A stretch of 64,000 bases of DNA from Escherichia coli (lineage in GTDB: Bacteria; Pseudomonadota; Gammaproteobacteria; Enterobacterales; Enterobacteriaceae), in the NCBI RefSeq assembly GCF_003018115.1, contig NZ_CP027457.1; one strand, given 5' to 3'. A program made the translations under genes and the position numbers. Shown one piece after another: positions 61,632-64,000 of the stretch (its first letter is position 1; each line of letters begins with the position of its first letter). The notes under the pieces are model-generated. The model ran no database searches and had not been told where the DNA came from. It was given only the letters and a program-made list of their open reading frames with translations.

Positions 61632-62086
61632 TGGAGTTAATGGTCGTTCATCCACATATTTTCTGGCTCAGTCTCGGCGGTTTGCTGCTGGCAGCCGAGA
61701 TGCTGGGCGGAAATGGTTATTTGTTGTGGAGCGGCGTGGCAGCGGTGATTACCGGCCTGGTAGTCTGGCTGGTGCCGCTGGGTTGGGAGTGGCAAGGGGT
61801 GATGTTTGCCATCCTGACGCTGCTCGCCGCCTGGCTGTGGTGGAAATGGTTGTCGCGGCGGGTGCGCGAACAAAAGCACAGCGATAGTCATTTAAACCAG
61901 CGCGGGCAGCAGCTGATTGGCCGACGTTTTGTGCTGGAATCTCCGCTGGTCAACGGGCGCGGTCATATGCGCGTCGGTGACAGTTCATGGCCTGTCAGCG
62001 CCAGCGAGGATCTCGGCGCAGGTACGCATGTTGAAGTCATTGCGATAGAAGGGATAACGCTGATCATCCGTGCGGTCATCGCCTGA
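61628..62086 (+). CDS. ybbJ: NfeD-like membrane protein YbbJ
   Basis: 152-aa protein, 4-nt overlap with qmcA (typical SPFH/NfeD pair). Confidence 0.9.
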
Positions 62087-62230
62087 TGCGACGCTGAAGC
62101 GTATTATCATGCCCGGAAGTCTGCGCCCGAATCGTAGGCCGGATAAGGCGTTTACGCCGCATCCGGCAGTCGTGCACCGACGCCTGATGCGACGCGGGCG
62201 CGTCATATCACGCCAAAACCGTAGGCCGCC
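62081..62230. repeat. Cluster of REP-type palindromic units
   Basis: Repeated GCCTGATGCGACGC / GCCGGATAAGGCGTTTACGCCGCATCCGGC units directly after ybbJ. Confidence 0.5.
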
Positions 62231-62264
62231 TCCGCCATGTTAAATGTTAACTGGCATTGGCAAT

Positions 62265-62627
62265 TTACTCTTCCCGGCCTTTACTCATACTTTTTTGGTC
62301 TTCATCCGGATAGTGTTTTTTTAGATATTCCAGGACGTTTTTATTGACCTTGTGTTGGGTATACACCCACCCTTTCCAGTAATCAGGCTGGTCCAGGTAA
62401 ACTTCTGGCGGAATGGTGAAATCAGAAAGCGTTAACCATTCGGCTAACAGATCGGGGTTTCGTTTCTGGATCAACTGCAACAGCATAATCAGCGACATGG
62501 CAGAGGCAGGAGCCGTACTATCGCCGCTTAAATACTTCCACACTGTCGACCGGTTCGAACGAAAAAGGATCGGTAGCAATGCCCGGTCCAGATTCATTTC
62601 ATTAAAAATCTTCTCAAATTCATTCAT
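62265..62627 (-). CDS. Hypothetical 120-aa protein
   Basis: ORF in AT-rich DNA; no recognisable family. It is not CueR, which I would expect next to ybbJ in K-12. Confidence 0.45.
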   Translation of the reverse strand: MNEFEKIFNEMNLDRALLPILFRSNRSTVWKYLSGDSTAPASAMSLIMLLQLIQKRNPDLLAEWLTLSDFTIPPEVYLDQPDYWKGWVYTQHKVNKNVLEYLKKHYPDEDQKSMSKGREE

Positions 62628-62993
62628 TTAAATTTTCCTGCCTGGCGTAAACCTCTTAAAAATTGAGATTTATCAAAGAAACGTATTTTAGCACACATCA
62701 GGAACCGCTTCACGTTTAGTCCAGAAACAGAATTTATTTCGCTTATCAAAACAAGTCTTTACTCTTTTTTACATTGAAAGAGCACGAAATAATTTCCTTT
62801 TTTATTTATATAAGAAACCATTTTTGTTTCTTATTGGTGATGTTTACGCTTACACCAGACAAAAATGCGCTTTACATCACACAAATGGCGGCGTAGATTT
62901 CGATTAAATTGCAACGTAGTTTATTTCTTAAAACAATATTATTTGTTTCTTATAGAAACATTAATACGACTTATTTTGAACAAGAGAAAATGA

Positions 62994-64000
62994 ATGAAAA
63001 CTGTAAACGTAGCTTTACTGGCACTCATAATTTCAGCAACATCCAGCCCTGTTGTTTTAGCTGGTGATACCATTGAAGCGGCGGCAACAGAGCTTTCAGC
63101 CATTAACTCTGGCATGTCGCAATCGGAGATTGAGCAGAAGATTACCCGCTTTTTAGAACGCACAGACAACAGCCCCGCTGCGTATACCTATTTGACTGAA
63201 CATCACTACATCCCTTCTGAAACACCTGATACCACTCAGACTCCCACTGTCCAGACAGATCCTGACGCAGGACAAAAAACCGTTGCCGCTACAGGTGATG
63301 TACAGACAACTGCTCGTTATCAGAGCATGATCAACGCCCGACAGTCTGCGGTAACTGACGCCCAGCAAACGCAAATTACAGAGCAACAGGCGCAGATCGT
63401 AGCCACACAAAAAACGCTCGCCGCGACTGGAGATACGCAAAATACCGCGCATTATCAGGAGATGATTAATGCCAGACTGGCGGCTCAAAATGAGGCTAAT
63501 CAGCGCACTACCACTGAACAAGGGCAGAAAATGAATGCGCTGACAACCGATGTGGCAGTACAACAGCAAAATGAAAGGACTCAATACGATAAACAAATAC
63601 AAAGTCTGGCGCAGGAGTCTGCCCAGGCACATGAACAAATTGACAGCCTGTCACAAGACGTAACCCAAACGCACCAACAGTTAACCAACACCCAAAAACG
63701 GGTTGCAGATAACAGCCAGCAAATTAACACGCTCAACAACCATTTCAGTTCGCTAAAAAACGAAGTTGATGACAATCGTAAAGAAGCCAATGCGGGAACT
63801 GCATCTGCCATCGCTATCGCCTCACAACCACAGGTTAAAACCGGTGACGTGATGATGGTGTCAGCGGGAGCGGGAACCTTCAACGGTGAATCTGCGGTGT
63901 CTGTAGGAACATCTTTTAATGCCGGAACGCATACCGTGATTAAAGCCGGTGTCTCTGCAGATACACAATCTGATTTCGGCGCGGGTGTCGGCGTGGGATA
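62994..64000 (+). CDS. YadA-like trimeric autotransporter adhesin (signal peptide, coiled-coil repeats, start of the C-terminal membrane anchor); 3' end beyond the window
   Basis: MKTVNVALLALIISATSSPVVLAGD signal peptide; Q/T-rich heptad repeats (ATGDVQTTARYQSMINARQ / ATGDTQNTAHYQEMINARL); anchor-like ...GTASAIAIASQPQ...GDVMMVSAGAGTFNGESAVSVGTSFNA...; open to the window end. Confidence 0.7.
   Translation, partial: MKTVNVALLALIISATSSPVVLAGDTIEAAATELSAINSGMSQSEIEQKITRFLERTDNSPAAYTYLTEHHYIPSETPDTTQTPTVQTDPDAGQKTVAATGDVQTTARYQSMINARQSAVTDAQQTQITEQQAQIVATQKTLAATGDTQNTAHYQEMINARLAAQNEANQRTTTEQGQKMNALTTDVAVQQQNERTQYDKQIQSLAQESAQAHEQIDSLSQDVTQTHQQLTNTQKRVADNSQQINTLNNHFSSLKNEVDDNRKEANAGTASAIAIASQPQVKTGDVMMVSAGAGTFNGESAVSVGTSFNAGTHTVIKAGVSADTQSDFGAGVGVG

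Follow-up and report, generated by a model that had tools for sequence, protein, structure and literature searches.

The right end of a 64,000-nucleotide stretch of Escherichia coli DNA (RefSeq assembly GCF_003018115.1, contig NZ_CP027457.1; the window hereafter) carries, downstream of ybbJ, a segment absent from K-12 that ends in a gene for a YadA-like trimeric autotransporter. A preliminary description of this DNA had placed a cluster of repetitive extragenic palindromic (REP) elements, a divergent 120-aa gene and a partial trimeric autotransporter gene after ybbJ, a layout that was confirmed by open reading frames (ORFs), Rfam and Pfam (Table 1). It had also stated, correctly, that ybbJ is followed by cueR in K-12, where the two stop codons abut with 0 bp between them.

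O157:H7 genomes match the segment at 98.7%, the corresponding Sakai genes being ECs_0546 (lipoprotein), ECs_0548 ('adhesin') and ECs_0549. The same DNA has been described as O-island 29 (OI-29), a 2,643-bp island with the genes z0638, z0639 and z0640 (Yang et al. 2018; PMC5826968), and ECs0548 was listed as a 'Saa-like protein' in S-loop 43 (Ogura et al. 2007). The locus, its position and its adhesin annotation have been known since the O157 genome comparisons. Site and genes are those of OI-29 of EDL933 and S-loop 43 of Sakai, and the published primers match exactly; unlike these loci, the window breaks off 10 nt short of the adhesin stop codon and does not reach z0638, the 67-aa gene (orf67) or cueR. 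We therefore consider it probable that positions 62087-64000 are the left three quarters of OI-29/S-loop 43, a trimeric-autotransporter cassette that is an old presence/absence polymorphism of Escherichia and not a recent island. What is added here is that the z0639 product, published as the transcription factor GmrA, is, as judged from its sequence, a trimeric autotransporter and belongs to a conserved cassette of putative regulator, adhesin and lipoprotein.

Table 1. Features of the right end of the window (positions in the 64,000-nucleotide stretch).
Feature	Position	Strand	Basis and remarks
ybbJ (NfeD family, 152 aa)	61628..62086	+	ORF; annotated ybbJ in F9792 and K-12; left flank of the variable site
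REP/BIME (bacterial interspersed mosaic element) cluster	62087..62235		Directly after the ybbJ stop codon; Rfam naRNA4
z0640 / ECs_0549 homologue, 120 aa	62265..62627	-	ORF; transcribed away from the adhesin gene
Divergent regulatory spacer, 366 bp, 30% GC	62628..62993		GC content; blocks conserved as far as Pseudocitrobacter
Perfect palindrome ATAAGAAAC-N7-GTTTCTTAT, candidate operator	62810..62834		Repeat search; putative function
Sigma-70-like promoter candidate for the adhesin gene, TTTACA-17-TAGATT	62871..62899	+	Consensus scan
Adhesin ORF (z0639 / ECs_0548 / gmrA)	62994..64000	+	335 of 338 codons inside the window
Sec-type signal peptide, residues 1-24, MKTVNVALLALIISATSSPVVLA/GD	62994..63065	+	Hydropathy, cleavage motif
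N-terminal passenger domain and Pro/Thr-rich linker, residues 25-95	63066..63278	+	No Pfam match
Stalk, residues 96-278	63279..63827	+	Gln/Ala/Thr-rich, no prolines; two ~47-aa repeats, then heptad coiled coil (~190-278) into the anchor
YadA-type beta-barrel anchor, residues 279-335 of a 60-residue unit	63828..64000	+	Pfam; 3 residues beyond the window end

The adhesin gene

Strain F9792 differs from the window at 3 of 1,920 positions (99.8% identity) and was used to complete the gene. Its adhesin gene of 1,017 bp (338 aa) stops 10 nt past the window edge; only YSF and the stop codon lie outside. On the full-length protein, Pfam YadA_anchor (PF03895) covers residues 279-338 at the extreme C-terminus (E = 2.1e-11, model positions 1-60 of 60), and phmmer comparison with solved anchors yielded matches to AtaA (6e-8), Hia (3e-6) and YadA (0.011). 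Completeness of the anchor, which the preliminary description had left to be checked, is thus seen in F9792, as is the C-terminal end ...AGVGVGYSF with its alternating hydrophobic residues and terminal Phe, the signal of outer-membrane proteins for the beta-barrel assembly machinery (BAM). The predicted signal peptide has a basic N-terminus (Lys2), a hydrophobic core at residues 6-22 (Kyte-Doolittle value of 2.6 versus at most 1.4 for residues 40-278) and a small-x-small cleavage motif, VLA/GD, and is conserved in all alleles. A single heptad register extends over the 89 residues 190-278, with 64% hydrophobic a and d positions, a score reached by 0 of 2000 shuffled sequences. The two protein repeats of the stalk are so diverged that no tandem repeat was found at the DNA level in the window's adhesin gene. 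Anchor, signal peptide, coiled coil and C-terminal aromatic residue together identify the protein, at the level of sequence, as a short trimeric autotransporter (type Vc) of the YadA-anchor class, as had been proposed; it is named 'YadA family autotransporter adhesin' by the Prokaryotic Genome Annotation Pipeline and 'adhesin' in Sakai.

Like YadA, Hia and AtaA, the protein has a C-terminal 60-residue anchor into which a coiled coil runs, a signal peptide and a terminal aromatic residue. It differs from them in that it has no YadA_head/Hep_Hag, neck or catalogued passenger domain; no recognised head or neck domain (YadA_head/Hep_Hag, HIM, others) was matched in Pfam at E <= 10. Instead, it carries an unclassified N-terminal domain of ~70 residues, which is conserved among Escherichia alleles but not in Pseudocitrobacter, and with 338 aa the protein is among the short ones of its family. 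It shares family and size class with Saa and Eib. Similarity to relatives on plasmids or phages does not extend beyond the C-terminal 30-57% of the protein (29-60% identity). There is no match to the solved EibD passenger, and the window gene is chromosomal, not located on a prophage or plasmid. The resemblance to the Eib/YadA class noted earlier accordingly holds for the stalk and anchor end only.

The domain order is read from sequence, and the following account of its working draws otherwise on established type Vc secretion. Sec would export the precursor by means of the 24-residue signal peptide, after which the 60-residue anchors of three chains would form one 12-stranded outer-membrane barrel through BAM. 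The coiled-coil stalk, whose length depends on the allele, would thread this barrel and present the ~70-residue N-terminal domain, and the protein may then act as a surface adhesin or autoagglutinin.

Alleles range from 338 to 703 aa. In the longer ones (459-703 aa) the stalk is extended, in part by a 369-bp tandem repeat present in 2.7 copies. Between Escherichia species, the adhesin is 67-77% identical and alignable over its C-terminal 73% only, versus 93-100% for z0640, z0638 and ybbJ; such hypervariability among conserved neighbours is the pattern of a surface-exposed protein. Two of the long alleles are annotated in RefSeq from an internal codon as 1,050-bp genes, with 1.1-1.4 kb left unannotated (locus L004, 4733-6535; locus L005, 5733-7862); the full ORFs from the conserved MKTVK start encode 594 and 703 aa.

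Distribution and history of the ybbJ-cueR site

To determine how common the segment is, we counted the states of the site in 5,426 complete E. coli genomes. The junction is empty, as in K-12, in 3,204 genomes (59%), which makes the segment accessory, as had been claimed. OI-29 DNA is present in 1,416 genomes (~26%), including O157:H7 and the extraintestinal pathogenic strains UTI89, RS218 and APEC O1, and 966 genomes have an unrelated, degraded ORF of ~0.7 kb of the ST131-like type. The three counts exceed the total by ~160, so that some genomes carry both OI-29 and the degraded ORF. A single match over at least 80% of the query, corresponding to the short allele, was found in 1,060 of the 1,416 OI-29 genomes; ~315 match at 80-90% identity, and those sampled carry longer, divergent alleles. 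The window strain is nearest (99.8%) to O169:H41-type strains rather than to O157.

In F9792, the adhesin gene is followed by the 140-aa lipoprotein gene, the 67-aa gene overlapping it by 4 bp, and cueR, and the extra DNA between the ybbJ and cueR stop codons amounts to 2,635 bp. No integrase, insertion sequence (IS) or tRNA gene was found in the flanks of this locus; the downstream sequence, in which mobility genes had been expected to be worth looking for, holds the lipoprotein gene, the small membrane-protein gene and cueR. Plasmid and phage collections contained no copy, the two full-length 'plasmid' matches being records of 4.9 Mb. The last ~9 codons of ybbJ read ...LIIRAVIA where the gap is occupied and ...LHIRAVSS in K-12-type genomes, with the remainder nearly identical (window 62040-62086 versus locus L002, 6401-6440), which marks the 3' end of ybbJ as the site of the indel's left breakpoint. 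The C-termini of outgroup YbbJ proteins are too variable for the direction of the indel to be decided from this end.

E. marmotae, E. ruysiae, E. whittamii and Escherichia sp. E1V33 carry the cassette at the same site and in the same gene order. In E. whittamii and E1V33, the degraded ORF of ST131-like strains is intact (409 aa; no Pfam or NCBIfam match) and located between orf67 and cueR, beside the cassette. Together with the same-site cassettes of E. marmotae and E. ruysiae, this arrangement suggests that the states seen in E. coli arose by nested deletion from a fuller old locus rather than by repeated acquisition. The degraded ORF itself is the third occupant of the gap, seen in the ST131-like strain E. 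coli H105 (locus L003, 5290-6005), with counterparts at 2338-3567 of locus L018 (E. whittamii) and 1533-2783 of locus L015. Annotation had suggested that the H105 insert was a z0638 remnant; BLAST showed unrelated DNA, later recognised as the degraded fifth gene of the fuller locus.

The preliminary description had taken the segment for a strain-specific island. A recently acquired strain- or pathotype-specific island would fit its absence from K-12 and from the majority of complete genomes, the low GC content of the spacer and of the segment overall (44%), and the direct adjacency of cueR and ybbJ in the outgroup Pseudocitrobacter, which may mean that the family had the empty junction first; Yang et al. 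(2018) proposed 'four independent acquisitions' of OI-29. AT-richness, however, is true of the spacer (30% GC) and not of the genes, z0640 having 44% and the adhesin gene 49% GC compared with 50% for the whole window. Differences among the alleles moreover reach 15% at the DNA level and amount to hundreds of codons. Occurrence at one site in four other species, the lack of mobility genes and the lack of plasmid or phage copies indicate an old variable locus, and both the boundaries at the two stop codons and the fuller locus with the 409-aa gene count against recent acquisition. We consider a recent island improbable.

The old variable locus could still contain a dead gene in the window, and we regard as unlikely, to a similar degree, that the 338-aa allele arose by decay from a longer adhesin and no longer functions. 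No allele class is shorter, its 459-703-aa relatives having 120-370 more stalk residues, and the gene is interrupted in some strains, by ISVsa5 in F8111-1SC3 and by IS1203 in two O157:H7 genomes. These interruptions indicate that it is dispensable in culture-adapted or outbreak lineages. Deletion of OI-29 left adherence to HeLa and Caco-2 cells unchanged (Yang et al. 2018), which supports a remnant and likewise speaks against an adhesin. The reading frame is nevertheless intact and encodes a signal peptide, the N-terminal domain, a coiled coil in register and an anchor that is complete; the short allele class is kept at 95-99% identity in ~1,000 genomes; and the gene is transcribed in O157, at 96 reads per kilobase per million mapped reads (RPKM).

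The linked putative regulator and lipoprotein genes

OI-29 is a 2.6-kb chromosomal unit of four genes between the convergent ybbJ and cueR: on the minus strand z0640, whose 120-aa product resembles XRE helix-turn-helix (HTH) proteins; the divergent z0639 (338 aa); z0638, for a 140-aa lipoprotein; and the overlapping gene for a 67-aa single-helix membrane protein. The last two are situated beyond the window.

The z0640 protein is 97-100% identical across Escherichia species, and its family is small: a profile search of 1.8 billion representative proteins yielded only 23 relatives. Distant members of the family match, one each, MqsA_antitoxin (3e-5), Xre-like-HTH (7e-5), HTH_3 (4e-4) and HTH_26 (5e-4), and the family alignment displays a typical helix-turn-helix core, ...NRSTxxKYLxG...P(A/x)SAxxLxxLL. 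This pattern, shared with XRE/Cro families such as HTH_3, HTH_26, Xre-like-HTH and the MqsA C-terminal domain, would place z0640 in a small, divergent XRE/Cro-type HTH family; unlike those families, it carries a conserved C-terminal extension of ~50 residues, and DNA binding is putative. NCBIfam had nothing for z0640, and Protein Data Bank sequence and profile searches gave chance-level matches only.

In all intact contexts examined, the z0640-like gene and a YadA_anchor gene are transcribed divergently. The spacer between them contains the 9-mer GTTTCTTAT three times, twice as the arms of the candidate operator and again at 62945-62953, with four occurrences in the whole 64-kb window versus 0.47 expected, and the AGAAAC cores of the palindrome are partly conserved in other species. 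The consensus scan for promoters was by itself no better than chance; both hexamers of the candidate in Table 1 are conserved in four Escherichia species and in Pseudocitrobacter. We infer that z0640 is a local regulator, which would act on the shared AT-rich divergent promoter region, perhaps via the GTTTCTTAT palindrome.

The z0638 product has the lipobox LLAGC, a long helix and a beta domain. In NCBIfam it gave only sub-threshold lipoprotein matches, and orf67, which encodes one hydrophobic helix, gave none. A z0638-type lipoprotein gene lies next to a YadA_anchor gene in six of the seven kinds of genomic context examined; in Enterobacter asburiae the homologue directly follows a YadA_anchor gene, and one orphan copy was seen. 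Relatives of z0640 with 30-47% identity occur in unrelated chromosomal contexts, where they are again divergent from a YadA_anchor gene, and a z0638 homologue (47-49% identical) follows in two of the three contexts with distant z0640 relatives. In Pseudocitrobacter, the whole four-gene unit is found between qmcA and fetA and not between ybbJ and cueR (loci L010, L011 and L016), which implies that either the cassette or the qmcA-ybbJ pair moved within the neighbourhood. The Pseudocitrobacter cassette has the same orientation and lies on the other side of the qmcA-ybbJ operon.

This linkage of z0640, adhesin and z0638 genes across contexts suggests a cassette of regulator, adhesin and accessory lipoprotein. 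SadA-SadB of Salmonella and E. coli and AtaA-TpgA are trimeric autotransporters with a dedicated helper encoded in the same operon, and the likeness to them lies in the linkage of z0638 to the adhesin gene and in their joint conservation. We infer a role of the lipoprotein as partner of the adhesin in the envelope; it and the small membrane protein would assist or accompany the adhesin there. A 2026 survey of trimeric-autotransporter helper proteins required a YadA head domain and would therefore have missed this class, in which no head domain is recognised.

Several points weigh against this reading of the four genes. The signal peptide was assigned by rule of thumb and not by a dedicated predictor, and homotrimer formation, surface display and adhesive activity of the z0639 protein are predictions only. 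The window gene is three codons short, such that completeness of the anchor rests on the 99.8% identical F9792. The Pfam match of z0640 itself is weak (the MqsA_antitoxin HTH, E = 0.12), and its AlphaFold2 model is all-helical and of low confidence, with a predicted local distance difference test score (pLDDT) of 58. The z0638 protein, finally, has no similarity to SadB in sequence or fold.

GmrA and motility

Yang et al. (2018) named z0639 'GmrA' and described it as a transcriptional activator that binds the fliA promoter. Their primers map exactly onto the adhesin ORF: the arms of the gmrA deletion primers flank it (window 62955-62993 and just past its stop codon), the cloning primer starts with ATGAAAACTGTAAACGTAGCTTTA, which is the window from 62994 onward, and the FLAG primer ends on the codons for ...GVGYSF. 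The arms of the z0640 deletion primers likewise flank the 120-aa gene exactly. GmrA is therefore the YadA-anchor protein described here, and the published role of a cytoplasmic DNA-binding activator does not fit the domain content found.

The data in that study speak for such an activator. Motility and the transcript levels of fliA, fliC and motA fell on deletion of gmrA or of OI-29, and complementation succeeded with gmrA alone; deletion of the orthologue in eight strains gave the same phenotype, and plasmid-borne gmrA raised the motility of K-12. In electrophoretic mobility shift assays (EMSA), the fliA promoter was shifted at 0-120 nM protein, with competition, and chromatin immunoprecipitation (ChIP) with quantitative PCR revealed 7.75-fold enrichment of the fliA promoter.

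The effect on motility could well be genuine yet indirect. Adhesins and flagella are generally under reciprocal control in E. coli, which favours an indirect effect. So do the published genetic data, which are consistent across strains, and the complementing clone, which starts at ~62675 (primer gmrA F-1) and so spans most of the spacer in addition to the gene. On the other side, expression of an adhesin usually lowers motility and does not raise it.

A direct role of GmrA as a cytoplasmic DNA-binding activator of fliA we consider highly improbable, the binding data notwithstanding. No DNA-binding domain was found in GmrA with Pfam or NCBIfam; there are only weak cross-matches of its coiled coil, to TMF_DNA_bd (E = 0.21), SMC (23 bits compared with a cut-off of 567) and ATG16, the first two of which may be the source of the published 'putative DNA-binding domain'. 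A signal peptide and a beta-barrel anchor predict export and insertion into the outer membrane, in conflict with a cytoplasmic location. The EMSA protein carried His6 before the signal peptide and the ChIP protein 3xFLAG after the terminal Phe, positions that, from what is established for Sec and for C-terminal outer-membrane protein signals, should keep both proteins out of their normal compartment. A factor binding a conserved core promoter would not be expected to be hypervariable in length and sequence. Neither a signal peptide nor the outer membrane nor the adhesin annotation comes up in the study, and our literature search found no paper linking GmrA to trimeric autotransporters.

Tentatively, these lines may be joined to the cassette. 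The genes z0640, adhesin and z0638, possibly with orf67, could form a self-contained, unrecognised cassette for trimeric autotransporters without a recognised head domain, in which an XRE-type regulator would act on the GTTTCTTAT palindrome and the lipoproteins would be a new accessory family functionally analogous, and unrelated, to SadB and TpgA; the GmrA mechanism would have been misassigned, the motility effect arising indirectly from a surface protein. The genomic observation is ordinary and the annotation conflict moderately interesting. The activator role, which comes from the sole functional study, has been repeated in at least three reviews; if it is wrong, one node of the flagellar regulatory map of enterohaemorrhagic E. 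coli needs revising, and the real function would still have to be found of a surface protein that roughly one in four complete E. coli genomes encodes. The linked small HTH protein and lipoprotein are testable candidates for a dedicated regulator and a new type Vc accessory factor.

Flanking sequences and related phage proteins

The stretch between ybbJ and z0640 is a REP/BIME element. Rfam RF02564 (naRNA4, REP-derived) matches 62137-62214 with 74.7 bits, above its gathering score of 59.5 (E = 1.4e-12), and was the only match in an RNA family search of the window segment. The median number of matching places per E. coli genome is 25, and falls to 1 if the stretch is left out of the query. A far larger expansion than that of the window is present in E. 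marmotae, where REP-type arrays of 4-7 near-identical copies spaced ~100-120 bp apart follow ybbJ and also lie between cnoX and fetB (locus L006, 1080-1823 and 4878-5258).

Past cueR, cassette-bearing strains encode an HlyD-family adaptor, a type I secretion ABC transporter and a giant Bap/SiiE-like adhesin (locus L001, 17642-31920), presumably a neighbouring O-island. There is a 4-bp overlap between the stop of the HlyD-family gene and the start codon of cueR, suggesting that cueR may be co-transcribed with the secretion genes. In H105, a 66-nt remnant of the HlyD-family adaptor gene is located upstream of cueR.

Proteins with a stalk and a YadA-type anchor 34-38% identical to the window adhesin are encoded by many Enterobacterales phages (of Pantoea, Yersinia, Erwinia, Cronobacter and Salmonella), some of them annotated as tail or receptor-binding proteins.

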